Origin: an uncultured Actinomycetota bacterium
GTDB lineage: Bacteria > Actinomycetota > Aquicultoria > CAYFWW01
Length of the DNA stretch: 64,000 bases
Direction of reading: 5' to 3'
Assembly (NCBI GenBank): GCA_964346985.1
Contig: CAYFWW010000005.1
Coordinates: forward strand, 17,206-81,205
A program made the translations under genes and the position numbers. Shown here in pieces: positions 47,170-64,000 of the stretch (positions are counted from its first letter, which is position 1; each line of letters begins with the position of its first letter). The notes beneath the pieces were generated by a model. That model did no database searches. It was not told the DNA's origin and saw only the letters and a program-made list of their open reading frames with translations.

Positions 47170-47347
47170 AAAGCTCTGCCTTGTACGTGAGCATTTGTGA
47201 TTGTGTGAGCCAACACATTCACAAAGGGAACTTAGCTCTATTAGCAGCTTGGATGCCAGATAATGGAACCAAAAAGTTAGTAGGAAAGTACCCACCTGAA
47301 CAAACAGGGTTCAACAATGTGATATGTCCACGGCAAGGCGGGGCTTG
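47170..47347 (+). ncRNA. ssrS: Candidate 6S RNA (SsrS/BsrA-like), about 180 nt
   Basis: 12-bp terminal stem: 47172-47183 AGCTCTGCCTTG pairs with 47334-47345 CAAGGCGGGGCT (two G-U pairs). Further interrupted helices lie inward. Own promoter. Position directly downstream of aspS matches B. subtilis 6S-1 (bsrA, aspS-yrvM intergenic region). The overlapping 69-codon ORF is Cys-rich and has no ribosome-binding site. Confidence 0.45.
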
Positions 47348-47366
47348 ACTCTGAAAGGAGATAAAC

Positions 47367-49686: not shown

Positions 49687-50805
49687 ATGGCAACAACAAA
49701 AAAACCCTCAAGTAAAAATTTTGATAATATTCTTATCTGGCAAAGAAGAATTTGGTTTCTGGTTGGCACCTTAATCCTGATTATCGTTTTATTTTATCTT
49801 TTGAATTTCTTAAAACCTGTAATCACACCTTTTGTCTATGCATTGGCCATAGTCTATATTCTTAAACCGATTGTTGATTTTTTTCAAGATAAAGGAATTC
49901 CTCGGATATTTGCTGTCATTTTAGCCTATTTATTATTCATTTTTATTGTTTCTCTATTCTTAATCTATATTATTCCGATAATTATTGATCAATTTCGAGG
50001 TTTGATTTCATCAATTCCAACTTATATTGAACTAATTGAAAAAAAGGCTCTACTTTATTTAAAAGAAATTGGTAAGATGCATTTACCCTTTGACCTAAAG
50101 AAATTACTAGCGGATTTATTGGATAGGTTAAAAGAGCCCGGGCTAGCTTTTTTTGGACGTATACCCGGATATACAGCTAATGTTGTATCTAGCTTTTTTA
50201 ATATTGTAATCGCTCCGATTTTAGCTTTTTATATATTGAAGGATTATGAACAAATTAGGTTGAATATCCGTAATTTAATACCCATGCGTTACCGAGAAGA
50301 AGTAACTACTGGTATTACCAAGATTGATGAGGTTATTTCAAATTACTTAAAAGGCCAGATTTTTGTTGCCTTAATAGTCGGTTTTCTTATGACTATTGGA
50401 CTTTATATACTGGGAATCGATTATGCATTGATAATAGGAATGATTGGCGGTATTGCTAATATTGTTCCTTATTTAGGCCCTATAATAGGGGCAATACCAG
50501 CTATAATAATCGCCTTTTTTGAGAAGCCTATTTTAGCTTTATGGGTAATAATAGTAATGATAATTATTCAACAAGTTGACAGTTTTCTTATTTCACCTAA
50601 TATTATGAAAAAGCAAATGGACTTACACCCGGCTTTAATAGTCTTCGCTCTTATGGTAGGCGGAATAATTTGGGGAATTCTCGGAATGCTCCTAGCTATT
50701 CCAATAACGGCAGCCGGAAAAGCTGTTATGATGTACTACATAGAAAAATCTCCTTATTATCAGGAGGATAATATAAAAGATGAAACACCAGGAGATAAGA
50801 GATAA
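49687..50805 (+). CDS. AI-2E family transporter (UPF0118)
   Basis: 372 aa, eight TM helices, AI-2E-type topology. GGAGG ribosome-binding site. Confidence 0.8.
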   Translation: MATTKKPSSKNFDNILIWQRRIWFLVGTLILIIVLFYLLNFLKPVITPFVYALAIVYILKPIVDFFQDKGIPRIFAVILAYLLFIFIVSLFLIYIIPIIIDQFRGLISSIPTYIELIEKKALLYLKEIGKMHLPFDLKKLLADLLDRLKEPGLAFFGRIPGYTANVVSSFFNIVIAPILAFYILKDYEQIRLNIRNLIPMRYREEVTTGITKIDEVISNYLKGQIFVALIVGFLMTIGLYILGIDYALIIGMIGGIANIVPYLGPIIGAIPAIIIAFFEKPILALWVIIVMIIIQQVDSFLISPNIMKKQMDLHPALIVFALMVGGIIWGILGMLLAIPITAAGKAVMMYYIEKSPYYQEDNIKDETPGDKR

Positions 50806-53419
50806 TTTTTTATCATTTTTTAAAAAAAGAGATCATACTATAGTAAAAAGTTCTTCTTTGATACCCAATGATCCAACAATGCTCCTGACAGGTGCGGGCA
50901 TGGTTCAGTTTAAACCGATTTTTTTGGGTAACCAAAAAGCTGATTATAATAGAGCTGCTTCTGCTCAAAAATGTGTTAGGACTACTGACATTGATAACGT
51001 TGGTAAAACCGCTAGGCATCTAACTTTTTTTGAAATGCTTGGTAATTTTTCATTTGGGGATTATTTTAAAGAAAAAGCTATTCCTTGGTGCTGGGAATTG
51101 CTTGTGGATGAATATAAACTTGATCCAGAAAAACTTTGGATAACTATTTATAATGATGACGATGAAGCTGCTGAAATATGGCAGAATGAAGCTGGAATTT
51201 CCTCAAATAAGATAGTCCGCCTTGGTGAAGATGATAATTTTTGGGCAGCCGGACCAACCGGTCCTTGCGGGCCTTGCTCAGAAATAATTTTTGACTTTGG
51301 GAAAGAGCGGGCGTGCAGTTCAAATTGTAGTGTTGGTTGTGATTGTGATCGATTTTTAGAAGTCTGGAATTTAGTATTTATGCAGTACGACCGGGACGAA
51401 AACGGTAAATTAAATCCATTGCCGAAAAAAGGAATAGATACCGGAATGGGATTAGAAAGGCTTGCTTCGCTTCTCCAGAATTCAAACACAAATTTTGAGA
51501 CAGATATTATATGGCCTTTAATAGAAAATTTGGTTGAATTATCTGGCCAAGAGTATGAAAAAGAGGATAAATATAAAACCTCAATGAGGATAATTGCTGA
51601 TCATTCTAGAGCTATAACGTTTTTAATTGGAGACGGAGTTATTCCCACAAACGATGGCAGAGGGTATATTTTAAGGAGGCTTCTCAGGAGAACAATTAGA
51701 CACGGAAAGATTATAGGAGTTGATAAGCCTTTTCTTAAAACTATGGTTGAAACTGTGATGGAATCAATGGGTTCTGTCTATCCTGAAATAATTGAGAATA
51801 AAGATTTTATTCTTAAGATAGTACAGAGCGAAGAAGAGCGCTTTAATCAAACATTACGCCAGGGCTTAAGGTTAATAGAAAAAAATATATCTGAATTAGC
51901 TAAAGAAAATAAGAAAGAATTATCTGGTGAAACGGCATTTAAACTGTATGATACTTATGGTTTTCCACTAGAACTTACTGAAGAGATAGCTTCTGAAAGT
52001 GGACTAAAAATTAAAAAAGAAGAATATGAGAAATTGATGGAAAAGCAGAGAAAAACAGGTAGATCGGCCTGGCAAGAATCAGGCTGGGAAGTTAAAGAGA
52101 AACTATACTCAGATTTAGCGAAAAAACTACCCAAGTCTGAGTTTAGTGGTTATGAAGAAGAAGAGACGCAAACAAAAATTTATGCGATTATCAAAAATGG
52201 AAAGCTATGTGATCAACTTAAGAAAAATGATGAGGGTGAAATCGTTTTAGAAAAAACTCCTTTTTATGCAGAAAAAGGAGGTCAAATTGCTGATAAAGGA
52301 TTAATTAAGACCGAGTCTGGGGAATTCGAGGTTTTAGATACTCAAGAGCAAATAGAGGGATTGATCCTACATATGGGTAGAGTAACCAAAGGCAGTATTG
52401 AAAAAACAAATTCTGCTAAAGCCATAATTGAAATTAGACGCAGGCAATTAATTGCCAGAAATCATACGGCAACACATTTATTGCATTGGGCATTGAGATT
52501 AGTTCTTGGTTCTCATGTAAAGCAAGCTGGTTCTTTTGTCGGGCACGATCATCTGCGTTTTGACTTTTCACATTTTCAAGCTATGAATGATGATGAGATA
52601 AAAAAAGTCGAAAATCTTGTTAACCAGAAGATTATTGAAAACCACCCAGTGAGATGTTTTATTACTACTCAAGACTATGCACGTGATATAGGAGCAATTG
52701 CCCTGTTTGGCGAGAAGTATGATGAATATGTCAGAGTTGTTGAATCTGGAAATTTTCATAAGGAGTTATGTGGCGGAACTCACGTTGTTTCAACAGGGGT
52801 TATAGGATTATTTAAAATTTCCTCTGAAACTTCTATTGGGTCTAACTTAAGAAGAATTGAAGCGGTCACATCTCGAAAAGCCATTGAAATTATAAACGAT
52901 AAAGAAAATATAATTAAGAAAATTGAATCTAGACTTGAAACCAATCTAGAACAAATTCCTGAAAAAATTGATTCTTTAGTGGATGAATTAAAAGATACAA
53001 AACAAAAGATTAGTAAAATGCAATCAAAGCAGATAAAGGATGATTTAAGTAAATTATTGAAAGATATTGTGGAAATAAACGGTTACAAGGTTGTGGTGGC
53101 CAAAATAGATGCTTCGGATATGGAAGAATTAAGGTATTATACTGATTTAATCAGAGATGAAACTAAAAGCTGCGTGGTTTTACTTGGCTCGATTACCAAT
53201 GGTAAAGTTCTACTAATTGCTGCAGCAACAAAGGATATAGCCGGTAAAGGCTTCAGCTCTAAAGAATTGATACAAAATGTTGCCCCGCTTGTCGGCGGTG
53301 GAGGCGGAGGCAAGAATGACCTTGCTCAAGCTGGTGGACGAAAAATTGAGAAAATAGATGAAGCTCTTTCGAAAGGGAAAGAATATATTATTGAATTTTT
53401 TACCGGTGATGATAATTGA
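50780..53419 (+). CDS. alaS: Alanine--tRNA ligase
   Basis: 879 aa. MKHQEIRDNFLSFFKKRDH… N-terminus, editing-domain HxxxH/CxxxH zinc motifs, and a C-terminal DHHA1 (GGGGG) region. Confidence 0.95.
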   Translation: MKHQEIRDNFLSFFKKRDHTIVKSSSLIPNDPTMLLTGAGMVQFKPIFLGNQKADYNRAASAQKCVRTTDIDNVGKTARHLTFFEMLGNFSFGDYFKEKAIPWCWELLVDEYKLDPEKLWITIYNDDDEAAEIWQNEAGISSNKIVRLGEDDNFWAAGPTGPCGPCSEIIFDFGKERACSSNCSVGCDCDRFLEVWNLVFMQYDRDENGKLNPLPKKGIDTGMGLERLASLLQNSNTNFETDIIWPLIENLVELSGQEYEKEDKYKTSMRIIADHSRAITFLIGDGVIPTNDGRGYILRRLLRRTIRHGKIIGVDKPFLKTMVETVMESMGSVYPEIIENKDFILKIVQSEEERFNQTLRQGLRLIEKNISELAKENKKELSGETAFKLYDTYGFPLELTEEIASESGLKIKKEEYEKLMEKQRKTGRSAWQESGWEVKEKLYSDLAKKLPKSEFSGYEEEETQTKIYAIIKNGKLCDQLKKNDEGEIVLEKTPFYAEKGGQIADKGLIKTESGEFEVLDTQEQIEGLILHMGRVTKGSIEKTNSAKAIIEIRRRQLIARNHTATHLLHWALRLVLGSHVKQAGSFVGHDHLRFDFSHFQAMNDDEIKKVENLVNQKIIENHPVRCFITTQDYARDIGAIALFGEKYDEYVRVVESGNFHKELCGGTHVVSTGVIGLFKISSETSIGSNLRRIEAVTSRKAIEIINDKENIIKKIESRLETNLEQIPEKIDSLVDELKDTKQKISKMQSKQIKDDLSKLLKDIVEINGYKVVVAKIDASDMEELRYYTDLIRDETKSCVVLLGSITNGKVLLIAAATKDIAGKGFSSKELIQNVAPLVGGGGGGKNDLAQAGGRKIEKIDEALSKGKEYIIEFFTGDDN

Positions 53420-53844
53420 GAATTCTTGCCATTGATATTGGCACAAAAAGAATCGGGCTAGCTTTATCTGATAAATTTGAAATTACCGCTAGCGCATATT
53501 CAGTCATAGAGAGCTCTAACCCGGAAAGTGATCTGCTTGAGATTAAAAAGATTATCAAAAAGGAAAATGTACAAGAAATTATAGTAGGAGTTCCCTTTTC
53601 TTTGCAAGGTGCTGAAAACTCTCAAGCAAAATCAGCCCTTGATTTTATTGATTTTCTTCAAAAAAATCTTTCTATCCCGGTCAAGAAATGGGATGAAAGA
53701 TTAAGTACAGTTGAAGCAGAAAAAGTTCTTATTGATGCAGATATATCAAGAAAGAACAGAAAAAAAGTAATTGATAAGATTACAGCGGCAATTATTTTAG
53801 ATAGTTATTTAAAATATAAAAGAATCAAGAAAGGAATTGAATAG
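53416..53844 (+). CDS. ruvX: Putative pre-16S rRNA nuclease / Holliday-junction-resolvase-like YqgF; TTG start
   Basis: MRILAIDIGTKRIGLALSD… RNase-H-like fold. Directly after alaS, as in Bacillus. Confidence 0.85.
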   Translation: MRILAIDIGTKRIGLALSDKFEITASAYSVIESSNPESDLLEIKKIIKKENVQEIIVGVPFSLQGAENSQAKSALDFIDFLQKNLSIPVKKWDERLSTVEAEKVLIDADISRKNRKKVIDKITAAIILDSYLKYKRIKKGIE

Positions 53845-54868
53845 GATTAGAAAGAAAATAATATTAATTTTTCCTGTTATATTTATTGTATTAATTTTGC
53901 TTGTTTTAGTAATACTATTTTCTGATTTTGGTAGGCTTAATATAGAAGAGAATCAAAATGAAAAAGTTCAGGTAAATATTAATCCTGGAATGAGCACCTC
54001 AGAAATTGCTGCCTTGCTAAAAAAAGAAGGAGTAATATCAAGTATAACTGCATTTAAAATTCAAATTTATCTTAAAGATGCAAGTAGCAAATTACAGGCT
54101 GGCCGCTATCTTATGAAAAAAAATATGTCTAATCAGGAAGCTATTGAAACATTAATTAAAGGCCCAGAAGAGAAATTTTATAGTCTTCCTGTTCCCGAGG
54201 GTTTTTTATTGAAACAAATTGCAGATAGGGTGGGAAGCAGGACTCCTTTGGACAAAGATCTTTTTTATAAAATAGCTAATAGTGAAGCAAGCAAATTTAA
54301 GAGTAAATATAAGTTTTTATCTCATTTACCTGGCAATTCATTAGAGGGATATTTATTTCCCCGGACTTATTTGGTAAAGGAGACAACCAGTGAGGAAGAT
54401 TTAATTCAAGATATGCTGGAGCAATACGAAATTCAAACCAAAAATCTACCTTGGAAGAATATAGAGAAATTAAAAATTAGTTATCACGATGTCATAATTA
54501 TTGCTTCATTAATTGAAAAAGAAGCAAAGGTTGAAGAAGAAAGGCCAAAAGTTTCTGCTGTAATTTATAACCGGCTGAAAAAGAAAATGTTTCTTCAAAT
54601 TTGTGCTACAGTTCAGTATTCTTTACCCGCCTGGAAAGAAAAACTGACAAATGAAGATTTGAAAATCAACTCGCCTTACAATACCTATATAAACAAAGGT
54701 TTACCGCCCGGGCCTATATCAAATCCGGGTTTGCCCTCATTAAATGCAGCTTTAAATCCAGAAAAATCAGATTACCTCTATTATGTTCTAACCAAAGATG
54801 ATAAACACTTTTTTACGTCAAGTTATAAAGAATTTTTAGAAGCTAAACAAAAGTATAATAATAAATAG
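53837..54868 (+). CDS. mltG: Endolytic murein transglycosylase MltG (YceG-like); TTG start
   Basis: N-terminal TM helix, LysM-like segment, YceG domain (…AGRYLMKKNMS…, …PGPISNPG…). Confidence 0.85.
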   Translation: MNRIRKKIILIFPVIFIVLILLVLVILFSDFGRLNIEENQNEKVQVNINPGMSTSEIAALLKKEGVISSITAFKIQIYLKDASSKLQAGRYLMKKNMSNQEAIETLIKGPEEKFYSLPVPEGFLLKQIADRVGSRTPLDKDLFYKIANSEASKFKSKYKFLSHLPGNSLEGYLFPRTYLVKETTSEEDLIQDMLEQYEIQTKNLPWKNIEKLKISYHDVIIIASLIEKEAKVEEERPKVSAVIYNRLKKKMFLQICATVQYSLPAWKEKLTNEDLKINSPYNTYINKGLPPGPISNPGLPSLNAALNPEKSDYLYYVLTKDDKHFFTSSYKEFLEAKQKYNNK

Positions 54869-54895
54869 GTGTTTATTCTGTCTTATGGAGAATTT

Positions 54896-56098
54896 ATGAA
54901 AAAACCGGAACTTCTGGCACCGGCAGGTAATCTGGAAAAACTTGAATATGCTATTGCTTATGGCGCAGATGCGGTATATATAGGAAGTTTTGAATATAGC
55001 CTGCGAGCAGCCGCGGATAACTTTAACTTATCTCAAGTAAAAGAAGCTGTTAAAATAGCACATAGAAATGATAAAAATATTTATCTTGCCTTGAATATCT
55101 TTGCTTTTAATGATGATATTAAAGATTTAGTCAGATATTTAAAAGAGCTAAAAAAGATAAAGCTCGACGCCTTAATAGTTAGCGACCCAGGTATTTTGAA
55201 ATTAGCTATGGAAAATGCTCCAGAGATTCCAATTCACCTTAGTGTTCAATCAAATGTAATGAATATACAAGCAGCAAAATTTTGGCAAAGCCTAAAGATA
55301 AAAAGGCTAACTTTAGCTCGTGAATTATCACTTGATGATGTAAAGGTAATTACTCAAAATGTCGATATAGAGACAGAAATATTCATACATGGAGCAATGT
55401 GCATAGCATATTCGGGCAGATGCCTTATCAGTAACTATTTTACTGGAAGGAATGCAAATAGAGGAGATTGTGCTCAAAGCTGCCGTTGGAAATACTATTT
55501 GCTTGAAGAAATGAGACCCGGTATTTTTTGTAAAGTAGAAGAAACAGATGAGGGAATTTACTTATTTAATTCAAAAGATCTTTGTTTAATAAGAAGAATA
55601 CCGGAATTAATAAAGTCAGGAATTGATAGTTTTAAAATTGAAGGGAGAAATAAAAGCCTACATTACCTGACAACTGCAGTTGGTACGTATCGACGGTTTA
55701 TAGATAATTTTTTTAATAATAAAGATAAGGTAGAGGTGAGGCCAGAATTTATTGAAGAACTTGAAAAAATAAATAGGCGAGGATACACAGAAGGATTTAT
55801 TGCTAAAGATGGAGCTATGGAAGACTTTAAAAAAAGAGCTATAAGTCAAAGTGTTGAATTTATAGGACTGGCAGATCAAAACGCAGATGATGTTATAAAT
55901 GTAAGGAATTGTTTTAAAAAAGGCGATTTCATTGAAGTATTTTGGCCTACCGGTGAGCTAGAATTATTAAGAGTTGAAAAAATTCAACTTGTTGATACTG
56001 GAAAAGAGATAAATACTGCCAACCCAAACATGAATGTCCGACTTAATGACAAAGTTTTTCCTAAGTGGTCTATACTAAGAAAAAGGATAGTAAAATAA
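54896..56098 (+). CDS. Peptidase U32 family protein
   Basis: …KPELLAPAGNLEKLEYAIAYGADAVYIG… canonical U32 N-terminus and an E-x-F-x-H-G-A-x-C motif. An ATG at 54896 with a GGAG ribosome-binding site is preferred over the GTG at 54869. Confidence 0.85.
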   Translation: MKKPELLAPAGNLEKLEYAIAYGADAVYIGSFEYSLRAAADNFNLSQVKEAVKIAHRNDKNIYLALNIFAFNDDIKDLVRYLKELKKIKLDALIVSDPGILKLAMENAPEIPIHLSVQSNVMNIQAAKFWQSLKIKRLTLARELSLDDVKVITQNVDIETEIFIHGAMCIAYSGRCLISNYFTGRNANRGDCAQSCRWKYYLLEEMRPGIFCKVEETDEGIYLFNSKDLCLIRRIPELIKSGIDSFKIEGRNKSLHYLTTAVGTYRRFIDNFFNNKDKVEVRPEFIEELEKINRRGYTEGFIAKDGAMEDFKKRAISQSVEFIGLADQNADDVINVRNCFKKGDFIEVFWPTGELELLRVEKIQLVDTGKEINTANPNMNVRLNDKVFPKWSILRKRIVK

Positions 56099-56127
56099 TT
56101 TTTAGGTAAGGAAAAGTGTGAAAAAAG

Positions 56128-56649
56128 TTGCTATTTAAAATGTTATATCCTGATTTAATAAATGATTCGATATTTGATTTGAACTTTGAGAAATTAACAA
56201 ATATTGGAATCTGTGCTTTGATAGTAGATTTAGACAACACGATGATTCCTCGTGATCATGATAAAACTAATCCTTTACTGAAGAAATGGGTAATAAAAGC
56301 ACAGGAGCATGATATGAAAATTTGTATTATTTCAAATAATGTACATAAAAGGGTAAAGGTTATTGCCGATGAATTAAACTTGCCATTAGTTTCTAGCGCT
56401 ATTAAACCATTTAGTATGGCTTTTAAAAAAGGCTTGAAAATACTTGATAGTTGCCCGGAGGAAACAGCAGTAATTGGCGATCAAATTTTTACTGACGTAC
56501 TTGGAGGAAATTTAGCAGGAATGACAACTGTACTTGTTGAGCCTTTAAGTGATGTTGACCTTATACATACCAAAGCGTTAAGGATTATTGAGCGATTTAT
56601 TATCAAGATTAGAAATAGAAAGTATAAGATTGATGGAAATGGCCATTAA
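56128..56649 (+). CDS. yqeG: YqeG-type HAD-IIIA phosphatase; TTG start
   Basis: DLDNTM HAD motif I, SNN motif and a GDQIFTD motif. Confidence 0.8.
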   Translation: MLFKMLYPDLINDSIFDLNFEKLTNIGICALIVDLDNTMIPRDHDKTNPLLKKWVIKAQEHDMKICIISNNVHKRVKVIADELNLPLVSSAIKPFSMAFKKGLKILDSCPEETAVIGDQIFTDVLGGNLAGMTTVLVEPLSDVDLIHTKALRIIERFIIKIRNRKYKIDGNGH

Positions 56650-56917
56650 AAATGTGCATTTTTATGTTAATGGAATAGTCCAGGGTGTTGGGTTTAGATA
56701 TTATGCAATGCGTCATGCAAACAAAAATAACTTAAAGGGATATGTTAAAAATACAAATGACGGAAGGGTTGAAGTTGAAGTCGAGGGAGATGAAGTAGAG
56801 ATTAATTATTTTTTATCAAGTCTTGAAGTTGGACCGCAAATGTCAGAGGTTAAAAAAATCAGTGATTTAACCGAGCAAGAAATAAAAGAATATGCAAGTT
56901 TTGAGATAAGGTTTTAA
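56633..56917 (+). CDS. acyP: Acylphosphatase
   Basis: …VNGIVQGVGFRYYA…GYVKNTNDGRVEV… acylphosphatase signatures. About 94 aa. Overlaps the yqeG stop. Confidence 0.75.
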   Translation: MEMAIKNVHFYVNGIVQGVGFRYYAMRHANKNNLKGYVKNTNDGRVEVEVEGDEVEINYFLSSLEVGPQMSEVKKISDLTEQEIKEYASFEIRF

Positions 56918-56920
56918 AAA

Positions 56921-57784
56921 ATGACTAAGATAAAACAAAAACTTTGCGGAATAATAGGATATCCACTTACTCATTCGCTCTCACCTATTATGCACAATAA
57001 AGCTTTTGCAGATGTCGGCCTTGATTGGTTCTATATGCCTTTTACTGTTAAAGAAGAAGATTTAAAGGATGCTTTAAAAGGCTTTAAAGCAATAGGGGTA
57101 ATAGGACTTAATGTTACCATGCCTTATAAAAAGAAAGTAATACCATATTTAGATGAAATTGCCCATTATGCAAATTTAGTCGGAGCAGTGAATACTATCC
57201 ATTACATTGAGGATAAAATAGTCGGTTATAACACAGATGGAAGAGGATTTATAGATGCAATTACAGAGGGGTTTAAGTTTATATCAGAAGACAAAAAAAT
57301 TCTACTTATTGGTGCGGGAGGTGCAGCTAGAGCAGTCGCAGTAAGTTTAGCAATGGAAGGGGCAAAGTCTATTATTATAGCCAACAGAACATTTGAGCAT
57401 GCCAATGACATAAAAGAGATTTTAGATAACCATTTTTCTAAATGTGAATCTAAAGTAGTTTCATTAGATAAGTCAATTAATCAGTATTTTAAAAACGTTG
57501 ACATGATTGTAAATGCTACACCGATTGGAATGTACGATAATGAAAAGGAAATACCTTTTTCCTTTAATAATTTTACCGAAAATCATTATGTTATCGATCT
57601 TATTTATAAACCATTACAGACCGAGTTCTTAAAAAGGGCAAAAGAAAGAGGAGCAAAAACAGCTAACGGCCTAGATATGCTTATTTATCAAGGAGCTGCT
57701 GCTTTTAAAATTTGGACAAATATAGATGCCCCGATTGAAGTTATGAAAAAAGCTATAATCGAAGAGATTAAGGGAGCCAATTAA
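56921..57784 (+). CDS. aroE: Shikimate dehydrogenase
   Basis: …GIIGYPLTHSLSPIMHN… substrate-binding N-terminus and a GAGGAARA NADP Rossmann motif. Confidence 0.9.
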   Translation: MTKIKQKLCGIIGYPLTHSLSPIMHNKAFADVGLDWFYMPFTVKEEDLKDALKGFKAIGVIGLNVTMPYKKKVIPYLDEIAHYANLVGAVNTIHYIEDKIVGYNTDGRGFIDAITEGFKFISEDKKILLIGAGGAARAVAVSLAMEGAKSIIIANRTFEHANDIKEILDNHFSKCESKVVSLDKSINQYFKNVDMIVNATPIGMYDNEKEIPFSFNNFTENHYVIDLIYKPLQTEFLKRAKERGAKTANGLDMLIYQGAAAFKIWTNIDAPIEVMKKAIIEEIKGAN

Positions 57785-57785
57785 A

Positions 57786-59492
57786 TTGCCTGAAGAGAAT
57801 AATATTGATATAGAAAAGAAAAAAGAACTTATAAAAAATAGCAGGATGGGTAAGTTATTGCTTGATAAAGGTTTAGTGAATGAAGAACAGCTTCTCGAAG
57901 CTTTTGATTCCTCGGGTGTAAAATCTTTAGCTCATAGGCTAGTTGAGTTAAAAATGGTAAGTGAAGAAGATATTTATAAAGCTATTGCTGAGAAGATGAA
58001 TCTCGAATATATTGATTTAAATGAAAATGAGATAGACCCTAATGCGGCGACGATTATATCTGAGGAAATCGCTCGTAAGTATAATTTAATTCCTGTCAAG
58101 TTTGAGGATGAAACGATGATAGTTGCTATGGCCGATCCAGCAAATGTGCTGGCAATCGATGATTTAAGAGTTATGACTGGTTATGACATAAAACCGGTTG
58201 TTTCAAGTAGTTCAATTATAGACCATGCTATTGATGAGTATTGCGGAATGGACCAGACAGTTGAACAAATGGTCGAAGGCCTAGATGAATTTGAAGTTTC
58301 AGAAGCGCTTGAAGAAGAAGAGGCAGAAAGTGAAAATGCCCCAGTTGTAAAATTAGTTAACTTGATTATCTCGGAGTCTGTGAGAACAAGAGCAAACGAC
58401 GTTCATATTGAACCTCAGGAGAAAGATGTCAGAATTCGTTTTAGGATTGACGGTGTTTTACACGAAGTAATGCGTTCACCAAAAAAAGTTCAAAACGGAG
58501 TAATTTCAAGAATTAAAATTCTTTCAAAATTGGATATTGCTGAAAAAAGGTTACCACAAGACGGCAGGTTCGGATTGGTAATTGATGGTAAAGCAATAGA
58601 TTTTCGAGTTGCAACATTACCAACAATCCACGGGGAAAAAATTGTTTTAAGATTACTGGAGAAAGAAAGTATACTAATATCTCTTGAAGACCTTGGGCTT
58701 GAACAAGACAGCCTAGAAATTTTTTCAAAATCATTTAATAAACCATATGGAGCAATTATGGTTACAGGACCAACAGGATGTGGCAAAACTACTACTCTAT
58801 ATGCGGTTTTAAATGTCATTAATTCTATAGAAAAGAATATAATTACTGTTGAAGATCCAGTTGAATACAGGCTTGCAGGCTGTAATCAGGTTCAAGTAAG
58901 TGAAAAAGCAGGAATGACATTTGCTGCCGGTTTAAGGTCTATTTTAAGAAATGATCCTGATATAGTAATGATAGGAGAGATCAGAGATAAGGAAACAGCT
59001 CAGATTTCTATTGAATCAGCTTTAACCGGCCATTTAGTATTGTCAACTCTACATACAAACGACTCAGCGTCAACTTTAACCCGCCTGACCGAAATGGGGA
59101 TTGAACCATTTTTAACTGCTTCAGCTGTTGATAGTGTTTTAGCTCAAAGGTTGGCCAGAAGGTTATGTCCAGAATGCAAAAAAGAATATAATCCTGAAAA
59201 AGATATTATAGAAAAATATAACCTTCCTAAAAAGAAAGGTAAACCGCCAACTTTATTTAAGGCAGAGGGTTGTAGAGCCTGCAATGATACTGGATATAAA
59301 GGCCGACTGGGATTATTTGAGCTCCTTTTAGTAAGTGAGGAGATAGAAAAACTATGTGTTGACAGAGCAACAGGTGACGATATCTCAAATCAAGCAATAA
59401 AAGAAGGCATGAGAACCCTTAGGGAAGATGGAATTCTTAAAGCATTAAAAGGACATACATCAATTGAAGAAATATTAAGAGTAACTGTTTAA
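57786..59492 (+). CDS. pilB: Type IV pilus assembly ATPase PilB / GspE family, paralogue 1; TTG start
   Basis: 568 aa. GspE N-terminal domains, Walker A GPTGCGKTT, Asp and His boxes, and a tetracysteine motif CPECKK…CRACNDTGYKGR. Confidence 0.85.
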   Translation: MPEENNIDIEKKKELIKNSRMGKLLLDKGLVNEEQLLEAFDSSGVKSLAHRLVELKMVSEEDIYKAIAEKMNLEYIDLNENEIDPNAATIISEEIARKYNLIPVKFEDETMIVAMADPANVLAIDDLRVMTGYDIKPVVSSSSIIDHAIDEYCGMDQTVEQMVEGLDEFEVSEALEEEEAESENAPVVKLVNLIISESVRTRANDVHIEPQEKDVRIRFRIDGVLHEVMRSPKKVQNGVISRIKILSKLDIAEKRLPQDGRFGLVIDGKAIDFRVATLPTIHGEKIVLRLLEKESILISLEDLGLEQDSLEIFSKSFNKPYGAIMVTGPTGCGKTTTLYAVLNVINSIEKNIITVEDPVEYRLAGCNQVQVSEKAGMTFAAGLRSILRNDPDIVMIGEIRDKETAQISIESALTGHLVLSTLHTNDSASTLTRLTEMGIEPFLTASAVDSVLAQRLARRLCPECKKEYNPEKDIIEKYNLPKKKGKPPTLFKAEGCRACNDTGYKGRLGLFELLLVSEEIEKLCVDRATGDDISNQAIKEGMRTLREDGILKALKGHTSIEEILRVTV

Positions 59493-59496
59493 TTCA

Positions 59497-59525
59497 TTGA
59501 CTAAATAGGTTATTGTTTTGATAAT
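59497..59525 (+). promoter_or_regulatory. Sigma-A-type promoter TTGACT-17-GATAAT upstream of the roadblock/GTPase unit
   Basis: TTGACT at 59497-59502, a 17-nt spacer, GATAAT at 59520-59525. Followed by an AAAGGAGG ribosome-binding site and the ATG at 59566. Confidence 0.45.
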
Positions 59526-59565: not shown

Positions 59566-59985
59566 ATGGAAGACTATGAAAATATAGATTCATCTTCCAA
59601 GGGCGATAGGGTAAGACATCAAAGCAGGGCAGAAAAGCTAACAACTGCCTTAGGTGATTTACTTCAGAATTCTCCTGAAATAGAAGCGGCTGCCCTGGTT
59701 AGCCCTGATGGACTTATGGTAGCTTCGGCACTCCCAAGTCATATGCAAGAAGAAAGAGTTGCTGCTATGTCTGCAGCTATACTAAGTCTTGGAGATAGAA
59801 CAGCAAATGAACTGGGGAGGGGGAAACTTACTCAAGTATTTGTCGAGGGTGAAAACGGATTCGTTTTTTTAATGTCCTCAGGACCTAATGCTGTTTTAAC
59901 AGCACTTGCAGGTAAAGGTGCAAAGTTAGGTTTAATATTTTATGACATGAAACATGCAGCAAAGGAGATATCCGAAATTTTATAA
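59566..59985 (+). CDS. Roadblock/LC7 domain protein (MglB-like GTPase regulator)
   Basis: 139 aa. …EIEAAALVSPDGLMVASALP…ERVAAMSAAILSLG…GKLTQVFVEGENGFVFLMSSGPNAVLTALAG… matches the roadblock/LC7 fold pattern of MglB/CvnB. Confidence 0.75.
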   Translation: MEDYENIDSSSKGDRVRHQSRAEKLTTALGDLLQNSPEIEAAALVSPDGLMVASALPSHMQEERVAAMSAAILSLGDRTANELGRGKLTQVFVEGENGFVFLMSSGPNAVLTALAGKGAKLGLIFYDMKHAAKEISEIL

Positions 59986-59999
59986 TTCGATGGTAACAA

Positions 60000-61616
60000 A
60001 TGGCATTAGCTGGTAATTTAAGAGACTTTAGTCTCCCGGATATATTTCAATTAATAAGTTTAAGTAAAAAAACTGGCTCTCTGGATATTGTACGTGATGA
60101 TACAGAGGGGCATGTTTATTTTAAAGATGGTGAAGTTTTTTTTGCCATATCAAACTGGCATCAAGAGTCTCTTGGTAAAAGACTTGTTAACTCAGAAAAA
60201 ATTACCAATGAACAACTAAAAAAATCAGTAAAACAACAAAAAGAAGAGAAACAAAAACGGCGTCTTGGACAGATTCTAATCGAAAAGAAATACATAACTG
60301 AAAATGTGTTGTCAACATTTGTGCAAGAACAGATTCAAGATACAATTTTTGATCTATTCAGATGGCAAGAGGGAGAATTTAACTTTAGAGCTGGAGAAAT
60401 TCCTTCTGAGGAAGACATCGGCCTTTCTGTTTCAGTTGAAAATATTATCATGGAAGGCGCTCGCCGTCTTGAAGAATGGAATAGAATAGTTCAAAAAATT
60501 CATTCATTAGAAATGGTTTTTAATATGGCTTCAGGCCCAGGAGAAGGGACTTTTGAGATTAGCCTGAAACCAATGGAATGGAAAATAATCTGTCTTCTTG
60601 ATGGACAAAAAACAATCAAGGATTTAATTGATATTACTGGTCTTAACGACTTTGAAATTTGCCGAATTATTTATGGTATGTATTCAGCCGGCTTACTTGA
60701 AGAGGCAGAAGAAATTGAAGAGATGGAAACCGCTGAGGAAGAAGTTGAAACAGCTGAAGAAGAGATAGAAGCAGAGCAAGGTGAAGTTGAAGAAGAGGCA
60801 GAAGAAGTACTTGAAACTGAAGAAGATACTGAAAAGATAATTAAAATTGAAGAAGAAGATAAATATTCTATCGAATCCTTAGAAAAGAGATCTCAGGAAC
60901 TTTTAGAAAAACAAGAGACTAAGGAAGAACCAACTCCAGAAATAGCTAAAGCAAAGATTAAAAAAGAAGAAAGTACGAAAAGTATAAAAACTGAGGATAA
61001 ATCTAGACAACAGCAGATTAAGAAATTGCTAAAAGATCTAACCTCAAAAGGCCTTGAAGTAGATTCTGATTTTACAGAAGGGTTGGTAGACGAAGAGGAT
61101 AAGAAAGAAATTTATGAAAAGAAGAAACCTAAGAAAGAAAAGAAAGTTGAAGTTATTGATGGAAAAGAACAAATAGACTCAATAAAAATTGAAGATGATG
61201 AAGCCGTAGAATTAGCTGAAGAGCATGAGGAAAAAGAGGAGATAAAAATTGAGCTTGAAGAAGAACCTATCAAGGAAGAGCCTTCAATACCAAAGATTGG
61301 AAAGATAGATAAAGAAGAAAAAGAGCCGGTTAAAAAAGAAGAGAAAAAAGAAGAAGGACATAAGAAAAAAAAGATTACCGAGCAATCTCTGAAAGATGCC
61401 AAGCGTTTTCCTGCTGGTGTGAGATTTGCTTTAACCGAAGAACTTACATCATTGACAGGTGCTAAAAAATCTGAAGCTAAACAAAAGAAAAAACAGACTA
61501 TTGATGATAAAAAGAAAGAAAAGAGCGAAACAAAAGGGGGAAAACCAAAGGCTGAAAAGGGAGATATAACAAAGGATACTGTCTTAAGGATTATTAATAG
61601 TGTCAAAAAAATATAA
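60000..61616 (+). CDS. PATAN/DUF4388-domain protein with an approximately 300-aa Glu/Lys-rich low-complexity C-terminal region
   Basis: N-terminal GNLRDFSLPDIFQLISLSKKTGSL… is the DUF4388 (PatA-like N-terminal) signature. Residues from about 230 onward are dominated by E and K (EEAEEIEEMETAEEEVETAEEEIEAEQGEVEEEAEE…KKEEKKEEGHKKKK). Confidence 0.6.
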   Translation: MALAGNLRDFSLPDIFQLISLSKKTGSLDIVRDDTEGHVYFKDGEVFFAISNWHQESLGKRLVNSEKITNEQLKKSVKQQKEEKQKRRLGQILIEKKYITENVLSTFVQEQIQDTIFDLFRWQEGEFNFRAGEIPSEEDIGLSVSVENIIMEGARRLEEWNRIVQKIHSLEMVFNMASGPGEGTFEISLKPMEWKIICLLDGQKTIKDLIDITGLNDFEICRIIYGMYSAGLLEEAEEIEEMETAEEEVETAEEEIEAEQGEVEEEAEEVLETEEDTEKIIKIEEEDKYSIESLEKRSQELLEKQETKEEPTPEIAKAKIKKEESTKSIKTEDKSRQQQIKKLLKDLTSKGLEVDSDFTEGLVDEEDKKEIYEKKKPKKEKKVEVIDGKEQIDSIKIEDDEAVELAEEHEEKEEIKIELEEEPIKEEPSIPKIGKIDKEEKEPVKKEEKKEEGHKKKKITEQSLKDAKRFPAGVRFALTEELTSLTGAKKSEAKQKKKQTIDDKKKEKSETKGGKPKAEKGDITKDTVLRIINSVKKI

Positions 61617-61623
61617 GGTAACT

Positions 61624-62178
61624 ATGCAGACTGTAAAGATACTTATTACTGGACCATTTAACGCAGGAAAGACAACATTTATAAAGACTATAAGTGAAAT
61701 TTCAGTTGTTTCCACTGAGAGGGATATTACTGACCATACCAAATCATTGAAGCCAGAAACTACTGTTGCAATGGATTTTGGAAAGATTACAATAGATGAA
61801 AAATTAGCTCTATATTTATTCGGTACCCCTGGGCAGGAAAGATTTGACTTTATGTGGGAAACATTATCTGAAGGGATGCTAGGGTATATCTTAATGATAG
61901 ATGTTTCACGAAAAGAATCTATTAAAGAAGCTAAAACAATACTGGAATTCTTTAAAAAACTATCTGATGTACCATACATTATTGCTCTAAATAAAAAAGA
62001 TATGGCTGATGGATCTATCAATGAGGAAATATTAAGAAAGAAGCTAACTGTTGAACAGAAAATCCCTGTTGTTGAATGCAATTCTTTTGAAAAGGAAAAT
62101 GTTAAAGATGCTTTACTTTGCCTTTTATATTTAATCCTCGATCAAACTGATGAAAAGGAGAAATTAAAGAAACGGTAA
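61624..62178 (+). CDS. MglA-like small Ras-family GTPase
   Basis: About 185 aa. P-loop ILITGPFNAGKTTF, STERD switch-I-like segment, GTPGQ in place of DxxG, NKKD (NKxD). Overall pattern parallels M. xanthus MglA (…GPGLCGKTT…STETDRT…TVPGQ…NKRD). The ATG at 61624 is preferred over an in-frame upstream ATG that overlaps the previous gene. Confidence 0.75.
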   Translation: MQTVKILITGPFNAGKTTFIKTISEISVVSTERDITDHTKSLKPETTVAMDFGKITIDEKLALYLFGTPGQERFDFMWETLSEGMLGYILMIDVSRKESIKEAKTILEFFKKLSDVPYIIALNKKDMADGSINEEILRKKLTVEQKIPVVECNSFEKENVKDALLCLLYLILDQTDEKEKLKKR

Positions 62179-62182
62179 TATT

Positions 62183-62491
62183 ATGCAGGATATTCTGATA
62201 TTTAAATATTTTCTATTATTTTCTTTAATTATAGTAATCGTTTTTTTTATCACTTTTATTATATATCGGCGCAGAAAAAGAGCTAAGAAGAAACAACGCC
62301 CGGTAGAATTATATTTTAGTGATGGTTCAATGATTAAGATTGAACCTGGTACTAAACAGTATTTGACTTATAAAGCACTAGCTAATCATATGTTTAGTGG
62401 ACCTGATATAAAAGATATGCAATCTCGTAGGATAATACGCCGCTATCATAATAAGCATTTCGAGATTTTAAAAAAATCTTATCCTTCCTAA
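62183..62491 (+). CDS. Hypothetical small membrane-anchored protein with a polybasic juxtamembrane segment
   Basis: 102 aa. N-terminal TM helix, then RRRKRAKKKQR, then a roughly 60-aa soluble domain. Last gene before the terminator. Confidence 0.4.
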   Translation: MQDILIFKYFLLFSLIIVIVFFITFIIYRRRKRAKKKQRPVELYFSDGSMIKIEPGTKQYLTYKALANHMFSGPDIKDMQSRRIIRRYHNKHFEILKKSYPS

Positions 62492-62535
62492 GTTTAGAGT
62501 AAAGAAAAGCCTCTAAGTACTCTAAACGTTTTTTT
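62492..62535 (+). terminator. Intrinsic terminator closing the roadblock-PATAN-GTPase unit
   Basis: GTTTAGAGTA (62492-62501) pairs with TACTCTAAAC (62518-62527) across a 16-nt loop, followed by GTTTTTTT. Confidence 0.6.
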
Positions 62536-62595
62536 CAAAAATGCCGATGTGTTAAATGAAAAAAATCTTTATAAGTGAGGTTTTTAATTTGACTG

Positions 62596-64000
62596 CTGCT
62601 GGTCAGAGTTTCGGTGAAATACTTCTGGAATCTAAAGTAATTGACCAAGATCAACTTGTAAGTGCATTAGAAGAACAGCAGGCAACTGGAAAACCCTTCA
62701 GTCAAGTAATTGTTGAAAAAGGTTATGCGACTCAAGAAGATATTCTTTCCAAGTTAGCCGAACTTCTTGGTTTGCCATATGTTAATTTAAATGAATATGA
62801 AATAAATGTCAGCGCTGTGGCTTTAGTCCCTGATAATTTAGCTCGTAAATATATAGCTATACCAATAGATTTCGATAATGAAAGATTAGTAGTAGCTATG
62901 GCCGATCCTGAAAATATGATGGCAATCGACGACCTAAGAATTGTTACCGGTTATGACATTAAATCAGTCGTGGCAACAAAAGACGGGATATTGAGTGCTA
63001 TCGAGAGATATTGTAAGTCAGAGTCAATGGAAGATGCTTTCCAAGACTTAGATGTTGGTGAAGAAGAAAATGAACTGACCAAGCTTCATGAAATTTCTGA
63101 AGATGCACCAATAGTAAAACTGGCTAATTTAATAATTACCAGAGCAGTTAAAGAAGGAGCTTCAGATATTCATATTGAACCACAGGAAAAAGATATCAGA
63201 GTAAGATACAGGATAGATGGTGTTCTACACGAAGTTATGAAGTCGCCGAAAAAGATTCAACCAGCCCTTCTGTCTAGGTTTAAAATAATTGCAAGCTTAG
63301 ATATTGCTGAAAAAAGAAAACCTCAGGATGGTCACTGCGGTTTAAATATAGCTGGAAAAGTTGTTGATTTTCGTGTGGCGACATTACCGACTGTATATGG
63401 GGAAAGGATAGTCCTTAGAATCTTAGAAAAAGAAAGTATCTTACTTGACCTTAATGATTTAGGTTTTTTAAAAGAATCACTAGATAAGTTCAGGAATGCA
63501 TTTATGCAACCCTATGGTGCAATTTTTATTACTGGGCCAACTGGAAGCGGTAAGTCCACCACTCTATATGCAACATTAAATGTTTTAAATACCGAAGATA
63601 AAAACATAGTAACAATTGAAGACCCAGTTGAATACCGCTTACCTGGAATAAACCAAGTACAAATTAATGCCAGGGCTGGCCTATCTTTCTCTAGAGGATT
63701 ACGGTCTATTCTACGCGCGTCTCCTGATATTGTAATGGTAGGGGAGATAAGAGATCATGAAACTGCACAAATTGCTATAGAAGCTGCTTTAACAGGTCAT
63801 TTGGTTTTTTCCACCTTACATACAAATGATGCTCCGGGAGCTATAACCAGACTAACTGAAATGGGTATCGAACCATTTTTAACAGCTTCAGCCCTATCCT
63901 GTATTCAAGCACAAAGGTTAGCTAGAAAACTGTGTTCAGATTGCAAAGAACCTTTCAAACCTACTTCTAAGGTTATTAAAGAGTACGGATTAAAGATAAA
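62596..64000 (+). CDS. Type IV pilus assembly ATPase PilB / GspE family, paralogue 2 (3'-truncated by the window edge)
   Basis: Same domain order as paralogue 1: N-terminal GspE_N (…MADPENMMAIDDLRIVTGYDIK…), Walker A GPTGSGKST, and the start of a Cys motif (CSDCKE). TTG at 62596 with a GAGGT ribosome-binding site; an ATG at 62556 is the alternative start. The frame stays open to position 64000. Confidence 0.8.

Follow-up and report, generated by a model that had tools for sequence, protein, structure and literature searches.

We analyzed a 64,000-nucleotide (nt) stretch of contig CAYFWW010000005.1 from the assembly GCA_964346985.1 of an uncultured Actinomycetota bacterium (hereafter the window), with a focus on a gene for a small Ras-like GTPase at positions 61624..62178 of the plus strand. 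Its intact open reading frame (ORF) encodes a protein of 184 amino acids (aa), and an alternative GTG start at 61600 would add eight residues to give 192 aa. The gene is the third in a unit of four plus-strand genes, which encode, in this order, a roadblock protein, a PATAN protein, the GTPase and a small membrane protein and are separated by gaps of 14, 7 and 4 nt. The roadblock protein (59566..59985, 139 aa) is a Roadblock/LC7 protein of the MglB/CvnB type (Pfam Robl_LC7, 1.7e-19) and a candidate GTPase-activating protein (GAP), and the PATAN protein (60000..61616, 538 aa) carries a DUF4388/PatA_N domain (Pfam DUF4388, 7e-38). Genes for pilus ATPases lie on both sides of the unit. The initial annotation of the GTPase gene, made from the DNA sequence without database searches, had overlooked these ATPase genes as well as the PATAN gene between the roadblock and GTPase genes.

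The motifs expected of a small GTPase are present in order along the protein, all on the plus strand. The G1 P-loop GPFNAGKT (aa 10–17, 61651..61674) and the canonical guanine-specificity motif G4, NKKD (aa 123–126, 61990..62001), can be read directly off the sequence, while alignments to Rab proteins and MglA place the G2 Thr at Thr47, within the stretch K43-P-E-T46-T47 at the end of switch I (61750..61764). The P-loop and NKKD had already been described as intact. G3, in switch II, reads GTPGQ (Gly67 to Gln71, 61822..61836), with Gly67 where Ras has Asp and Gln71 as the catalytic Gln, and the G5 position reads C-N-S when aligned to T-S-A of Rab. A HMMER alignment to Rab35, Ypt1 and Rab8 puts GTPGQ on DTAGQ and T47 on the switch-I Thr. 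In BLASTP and hhalign alignments with Myxococcus xanthus MglA (a query identical to PDB 6hjh_A over 195/195 residues), G67 corresponds to T78, Q71 to Q82, T47 to T54 and T46 to R53. The earlier view that GTPGQ stands in place of DxxG therefore holds, and the MglA motif TVPGQ named in the initial annotation is indeed found in 6hjh_A. Since both sets of alignments fix GTPGQ at the G3 position, no Asp-bearing G3, which would have spoken against that view, lies elsewhere in the protein.

Thus, a G1 motif, a G2 Thr, an xxxGQ motif and an [NT]KxD motif are combined in a G domain of about 180 aa, as in the Ras superfamily. In profile searches the protein scores 50.8 bits against the NCBIfam model TIGR00231 small_GTP (cutoff 42.5) and 45.3 and 44.5 bits against Pfam Ras and Arf, both above their cutoffs. 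An AlphaFold2 (AF2) model shows a Ras fold with a predicted local distance difference test score (pLDDT) of 75.7, and its top Foldseek matches are Sec4, Rab8 and MglA 6izw_A. As initially proposed, the product is thus predicted to be a Ras-superfamily small GTPase and neither a translation-factor nor an Era-type GTPase, and Pfam, TIGR00231, the Rab alignments and Foldseek all agree on this.

The Gly in place of the switch-II Asp had been presented as a special feature of this gene. Homology searches showed that it is the family norm: GTPGQ is found in all of the 120 best database homologues, in 79/79 orthologues obtained by translating genome loci, and, among the 150 best 50%-identity cluster representatives, in 108 of the 111 that have a recognizable xxPGQ motif. 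The family is large, as 7967 of 8000 scored candidates are homologues at E <= 1e-3 and 1362 cluster representatives remain at E <= 1e-10. Such near-universal occurrence indicates that Gly67 has been selected and reflects neither chance nor a sequencing error. Across these alignments, Gly-for-Asp at position 67 is an invariant state of the family and no peculiarity of the gene at 61624-62178. The P-loop is just as constant, with the pattern GPF[SAGN]AGKT in 120/120 best homologues. The nearest named homologues are actinobacterial ‘ATP/GTP-binding proteins’ with about 60% identity.

According to Wuichet & Sogaard-Andersen (2014) (PMC4316618), GTPGQ is the hallmark of Groups 2–5 of the MglA family, in which a Thr replaces the Arg finger of MglA and which share a mechanism distinct from that of Group 1 MglA. 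A canonical G4 is found in Groups 1, 4 and 5 and is missing from Groups 2 and 3, and PATAN neighbors are described for Groups 1 and 5 (PMC4316618). In MglA itself, restoring the Asp by the mutation T78D abolishes function (PMC3000849). The GTPase of the window combines GTPGQ instead of DxxGQ with a Thr directly before the G2 Thr (T46-T47; TT in 78/79 orthologues) and a roadblock gene two genes upstream, which is within the four genes used to define this class. With its canonical [NT]KxD motif (NKKD), a PATAN neighbor and no conservon, it appears most like Group 5, and we found no defining difference from Groups 2–5, especially Group 5. As a separate observation, 113 of the 120 closest homologues (mostly actinobacterial, about 60% identical) lack [NT]KxD, which the window protein has as NKKD. 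In those that were aligned, the G4 region mostly reads ALNRxx, without the guanine-specifying Asp, so that the nucleotide specificity of these close homologues is in question.

A genome scan returned 80 loci, none of the matches in the genome collection exceeded 61% identity, and all counts refer to loci with enough flanking DNA. The GTPase orthologue has an upstream roadblock gene in 53/53 Actinomycetota and 9/9 Chloroflexota loci and an upstream PATAN gene in 51/53 and 6/9, respectively. In Actinomycetota, a pilB gene follows downstream within 10 kb in 46/50 loci (44 of them within 3 kb). Because the roadblock-PATAN-GTPase trio is kept in both phyla and pilB in Actinomycetota only, the trio is the conserved core, and a link to pili applies to Actinomycetota and the window. 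The synteny roadblock-PATAN-GTPase-pilB is present in about 50 Actinomycetota genomes, and the recurrent actinobacterial order is alaS-ruvX-mltG-aroE-roadblock-PATAN-GTPase-pilB-pilT, a backbone shared by the window. Variants of the locus carry three roadblock genes, a PATAN protein as long as 1465 aa, or aroE downstream of the GTPase gene. The tight and conserved placement of the trio next to pilB/pilT in Actinomycetota appears not to be described in PMC4316618.

In the window, the gene directly upstream of the unit encodes a PilB/GspE-type ATPase (paralogue 1, 57786..59492, plus strand; Pfam T2SSE 1.2e-141 and MshEN 5e-21). A second PilB-type ATPase gene (paralogue 2, 62556..64000, plus strand) follows the unit and runs off the end of the window as an open frame without stops. 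Paralogue 2 is 56% identical to paralogue 1 and 99% identical to a gene of a 98%-identical relative (L006), where it is followed by genes for pilT, pilC, a pilin, a prepilin peptidase and pilM. The upstream copy is an apparent lineage-specific addition, since most actinobacterial relatives have aroE directly before the roadblock gene.

Taken together, we consider it likely that the locus encodes a GTPGQ-class switch of the MglA family which controls type IV pilus assembly together with a PATAN partner and a roadblock protein as its GAP. That the GTPase regulates pilus assembly is probable from synteny and analogy only. In this scheme, the GTPase would cycle between a GTP and a GDP form. A roadblock dimer would serve as the GAP and insert no Arg but shift the position of Gln71 and switch I, a mode of action shown or modelled for the pairs MglB-MglA and MfpD-MfpB. 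The PATAN protein would couple the switch to the pilus motor, as the PATAN domains of PixE and PixG bind PilB and PilC, and it may also sense cyclic di-GMP (c-di-GMP) via an MshEN-like alpha-clip, or act as an exchange factor. The output would be control over the timing or the site of type IV pilus assembly.

The part assigned to the PATAN protein draws on Synechocystis, where the PATAN domain alone binds the N-terminal domain of PilB1 as well as PilC and reverses phototaxis (Han et al. 2022; bioRxiv 10.1101/2021.06.11.447907). The same study pointed out that PATAN genes often have genes for MglA/MglB homologues close by (bioRxiv 10.1101/2021.06.11.447907), and in the literature library that we searched, no paper joins DUF4388, roadblock and GTPase. 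Like PixE, PixG and PilG of Synechocystis, the window protein combines a PATAN/DUF4388 domain with an alpha-clip and is associated with a PilB extension ATPase. However, in the cyanobacterium the PATAN domain belongs to response regulators of the PATAN-REC type under phosphorelay or photoreceptor control, whereas the window protein joins it to a winged-helix-like region and a long tail rich in E and K, and is paired with the GTPase and the roadblock protein. The winged-helix-like region spans aa ~185–240 (60550-60720, plus strand) and resembles MarR_2 in 24/43 orthologues (best E 1.8e-4), and the low-complexity E/K-rich tail comprises the ~300 C-terminal residues (60700-61616, plus strand). 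In total length, the orthologues of the PATAN protein range from about 250 to 1465 aa. We also considered whether the winged helix corresponds to DUF742, the domain of the exchange factors CvnC and MfpC. As a weak DUF742 match was seen in only 2/43 orthologues (best E 0.025), compared to 24/43 for MarR_2, and none in the window protein, this link is not established, and a kinship between the middle genes of the roadblock-PATAN-GTPase trio and those of conservons is put forward here as an idea.

The alpha-clip is an insertion at aa 57–111 of the PATAN protein (60168-60332, plus strand) with a putative c-di-GMP motif of the MshEN type, built of two 24-residue repeats, SLGKRLVNSEKITNEQLKKSVKQQ and RLGQILIEKKYITENVLSTFVQEQ. 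It scores 44.5 bits against NCBIfam NF053729, a model for an MshE-related c-di-GMP motif with a cutoff of 38, and aligns to the PilB N-terminus, the MshEN region, in 5tsg_B (1.7e-5). For comparison we used the MshEN pattern of two RLGxx(L/V/I)(L/V/I)xxG(L/V/I)(L/V/I)xxxxLxxxLxxQ repeats, 24 residues each, with a joint of about five residues. Neither of the two repeats fits the relaxed pattern of the MshEN authors.

Several observations weigh against a c-di-GMP-responsive pilus switch or call for caution. In the alpha-clip, a Ser replaces the Arg that opens repeat 1, the turn Gly is replaced by Glu in repeat 1 and by Lys in repeat 2, the spacer has 7 residues compared to 5 in the MshEN consensus, and the NF053729 model is matched by only 15/43 orthologues of the PATAN protein. 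The roles of GAP, guanine nucleotide exchange factor (GEF) and effector would all be assigned by analogy. The placement in Group 5 follows published criteria and not a tree built on the Wuichet reference set. Rab proteins marginally outscore MglA, so that fold and sequence searches cannot tell MglA from Rab/Arf, and since Foldseek ranks Sec4, MglA 6izw_A and Rab8 together, the fold is not discriminating. Moreover, switch I (aa 28–50) of the AF2 model has a pLDDT <50, which makes the placement of Lys43 and Arg33 unreadable. At the level of the locus, the module adjoins the housekeeping genes alaS-ruvX-mltG-aroE, and pilB lies downstream within 10 kb in 0/8 Chloroflexota loci, so that the link to pili may be restricted to some lineages or reflect synteny alone.

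These last two points lead to the explanation that competes best, a possible though less probable one, in which the trio is an MglA-family switch unrelated to pili, with a role in, for example, cell polarity, division or envelope growth, and the adjacency to pilB is inherited gene order. It would account for the Chloroflexota orthologues, which hold the trio without a nearby pilB, for the block in Actinomycetota always following alaS-ruvX-mltG-aroE, and for a terminator-like hairpin between the unit and the second pilB gene of the window. However, a mere relic of gene order fits poorly with pilB staying downstream in the great majority of Actinomycetota loci despite rearrangements, as aroE is found before or after the trio, there are one or three roadblock genes, and the window has an extra upstream pilB. 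In addition, cyanobacterial PATAN domains bind PilB/PilC, and MglA and SofG govern PilB/PilT polarity in Myxococcus.

Returning to a switch that acts on pili, a more elaborate version can be offered as a tentative proposal. Here, the trio would be an uncharacterized switch, kept in bacteria of the Actinomycetota type and gating the PilB motor, in which the PATAN protein integrates c-di-GMP via the MshEN-like alpha-clip and serves as exchange factor or effector adaptor in place of the DUF742 GEF, and GTP hydrolysis proceeds without an Arg finger but depends on Lys43.

The catalytic residues bear on this last point. The position of the Arg53 finger of MglA is taken by Thr46, and the motif KxxTT is present in 78/79 genome orthologues. 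By alignment, true MglA proteins have an intrinsic Arg finger that the GTPase lacks. Of the two MglA residues that were to be looked for, the Gln is therefore present (Q71 = Q82) and the Arg is absent (T46 = R53). Lys43, four residues ahead of the G2 Thr, is invariant and found in 25/25 aligned homologues, and Arg33 is R or K in homologues. The spacing of Lys43/Thr47/Gly67/Gln71 is identical to that of Lys61/Thr65/Gly85/Gln89 in MfpB of Mycobacterium tuberculosis, which carries 85-GxxGQ-89, Lys61 and Thr65 (PMC13015309). For MfpB, a 2026 preprint proposed Lys61 as a stand-in for the absent Arg and the roadblock protein MfpD as a GAP that acts via switch I, with MfpD and MfpB forming a 2:1 complex (PMC13015309). 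Lys43 may possibly substitute for the missing Arg in a similar way.

The initial annotation had argued for an MglA-type mechanism. This stands as far as membership of the MglA family, broadly defined, is concerned (PMC4316618), but not for the intrinsic Arg finger. A true MglA-type (Group 1) switch, with an Arg finger beside the G2 Thr that is repositioned by MglB, is very improbable here. The GTPase does share with the MglA-MglB systems of M. xanthus and Thermus thermophilus (PDB 3T12, 6IZW, 6HJH) the family, a Ras-like fold, a switch II that has lost its Asp and holds the catalytic Gln in xxPGQ, and an adjoining gene for a roadblock-domain regulator, and MglA structures are among its top Foldseek matches. 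The link of MglA to type IV pili is also a functional one in Myxococcus. However, identity to MglA is 27%, G3 is GTPGQ and not TVPGQ, and the Thr at the Arg53 position, within the practically invariant TT of the orthologues, contradicts a Group 1 assignment at the sequence level. Groups 2–5 are mechanistically different and have no finger (PMC4316618). The partner points in the same direction, as the roadblock protein is far nearer to CvnB (1e-12) and Rv3364c (8e-11) than to MglB, a distant match at ~8e-3.

More precisely, the PDB matches of the roadblock protein are 7f8m_A (3e-27), CvnB5 3leq, Rv3364c 9hef and MglB. The protein also has the Asp-Gly pair known from the literature, which is conserved among orthologues (D48 in 79/81, G49 in 72/81). 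The earlier suggestion that the adjacent roadblock gene encodes the GAP has gained support from its presence in every Actinomycetota and Chloroflexota locus counted, from the Asp-Gly pair and from the precedent of MfpB, for which GAP activity of MfpD (roadblock) and GEF activity of MfpC (DUF742) are both experimental (PMC11343762). By this analogy, the roadblock protein is a sound GAP candidate for the GTPase. Further arginines of the roadblock protein are conserved among the 81 orthologues (R64 in 70/81, R85 in 66/81, R21 in 65/81). They are possibly relevant, as no trans-acting finger is known for the GTPGQ class.

The likeness to MfpB and CvnD could also mean that the GTPase belongs to a conservon, i.e., an actinobacterial G-protein system of Group 2 in which a histidine kinase (CvnA) and an exchange factor (DUF742) take part, but this too is very unlikely. 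The systems have much in common: the closest named homologues are actinobacterial, G3 is GxxGQ, the Lys-x-x-x-Thr spacing is that of MfpB, the roadblock partner has the Asp-Gly pair, the order roadblock, middle gene, GTPase is that of cvnB-cvnC-cvnD and of the Mfp system, and DUF742 itself was matched, weakly, in the two PATAN-protein orthologues mentioned above. In contrast to conservons, however, the scanned genes include neither a histidine kinase nor a DUF742 protein, PilB-type ATPases flank both sides, and the middle gene encodes a PATAN protein with a winged helix that is MarR_2-like far more often than DUF742-like. G4 and G5 are NKKD and C-N-S in the window, compared to the Group 2 marks NxFD and DAR, and the genomic context is one of pilus genes in the window but of mfpA or specialized metabolism for MfpB/CvnD systems.

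Finally, an NTPase of the GPN-loop (ATP_bind_1) or SR-beta type with no relation to MglA, to which the best Pfam score (ATP_bind_1, 63 bits) and the JGI name of one homologue (‘signal recognition particle receptor subunit beta’) could point, is the least credible explanation, as the ATP_bind_1 match is partial (aa 45–138 against 67–177 of 240 profile positions) and leaves the P-loop/GPN-loop region uncovered, no Gly-Pro-Asn motif occurs anywhere in the GTPase, SRPRB stays at 19.5 under its cutoff of 25, Pfam has no MglA model and M. xanthus MglA itself matches only Arf, with weak matches to SRPRB and Gtr1, and the protein is as large as expected for a small GTPase and has a roadblock partner.

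The last gene of the unit (62183..62491, plus strand) is an ORF for a small predicted membrane protein of 102 aa with a hydrophobic N-terminal helix and a basic stretch. It has no Pfam match and belongs to no known family, and phmmer matches are limited to L001 and L006, the two closest relatives; in L006 the gene is likewise called at 102 aa. Directly downstream, RNA folding revealed a hairpin followed by a U7 tract (62492..62535, plus strand; −12.7 kcal/mol, z = −3.06 compared to shuffled sequences), which looks like a terminator that ends the unit and separates it from the second pilB gene. A scan for consensus promoters and terminators gave nothing significant and missed the hairpin owing to the small number of G-C pairs in its stem. 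A promoter-like TTGACT-17-GATAAT (59497..59525, plus strand), located in the 73 nt that precede the roadblock gene, matches 10/12 consensus positions. This is weak evidence, as such sites are not enriched (23 found compared to 19.5 expected from shuffles).

An Rfam scan of the window found no riboswitch, e.g., for c-di-GMP, near the unit, and its sole match is 6S (SsrS) RNA at 47170-47348 (98.6 bits). The alaS-ruvX-mltG(yceG)-aroE backbone lies directly upstream of the first pilB gene, at 50780-57784, and is kept in dozens of Actinomycetota genomes. The alanyl-tRNA synthetase (AlaRS) of the window has at most ~53–56% identity to database entries, with ~53% to Actinomycetota metagenome-assembled genomes (Aquicultorales, Geothermincolales, Hakubella). 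The source organism would thus probably be an AT-rich and little-sampled relative of these that branches deeply.

By itself, the Gly-for-Asp substitution carries little weight, as it is a published hallmark of a very large family, and the GTPGQ class with its usual roadblock and PATAN partners is already known. What remains of interest is the finger-less mechanism and the uncharacterized pilus-adjacent module of Actinomycetota. How the GTPGQ class hydrolyzes GTP has been a question since 2014, as both the GTPase and the roadblock protein are without an arginine finger, and for MfpB there are models only. The PATAN alpha-clip represents a possible c-di-GMP input to a module located next to pilus genes. 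Moreover, the strict synteny of roadblock-PATAN-GTPase-pilB/pilT across Actinomycetota and the window points to a putative regulator of type IV pili in lineages of the Gram-positive type.

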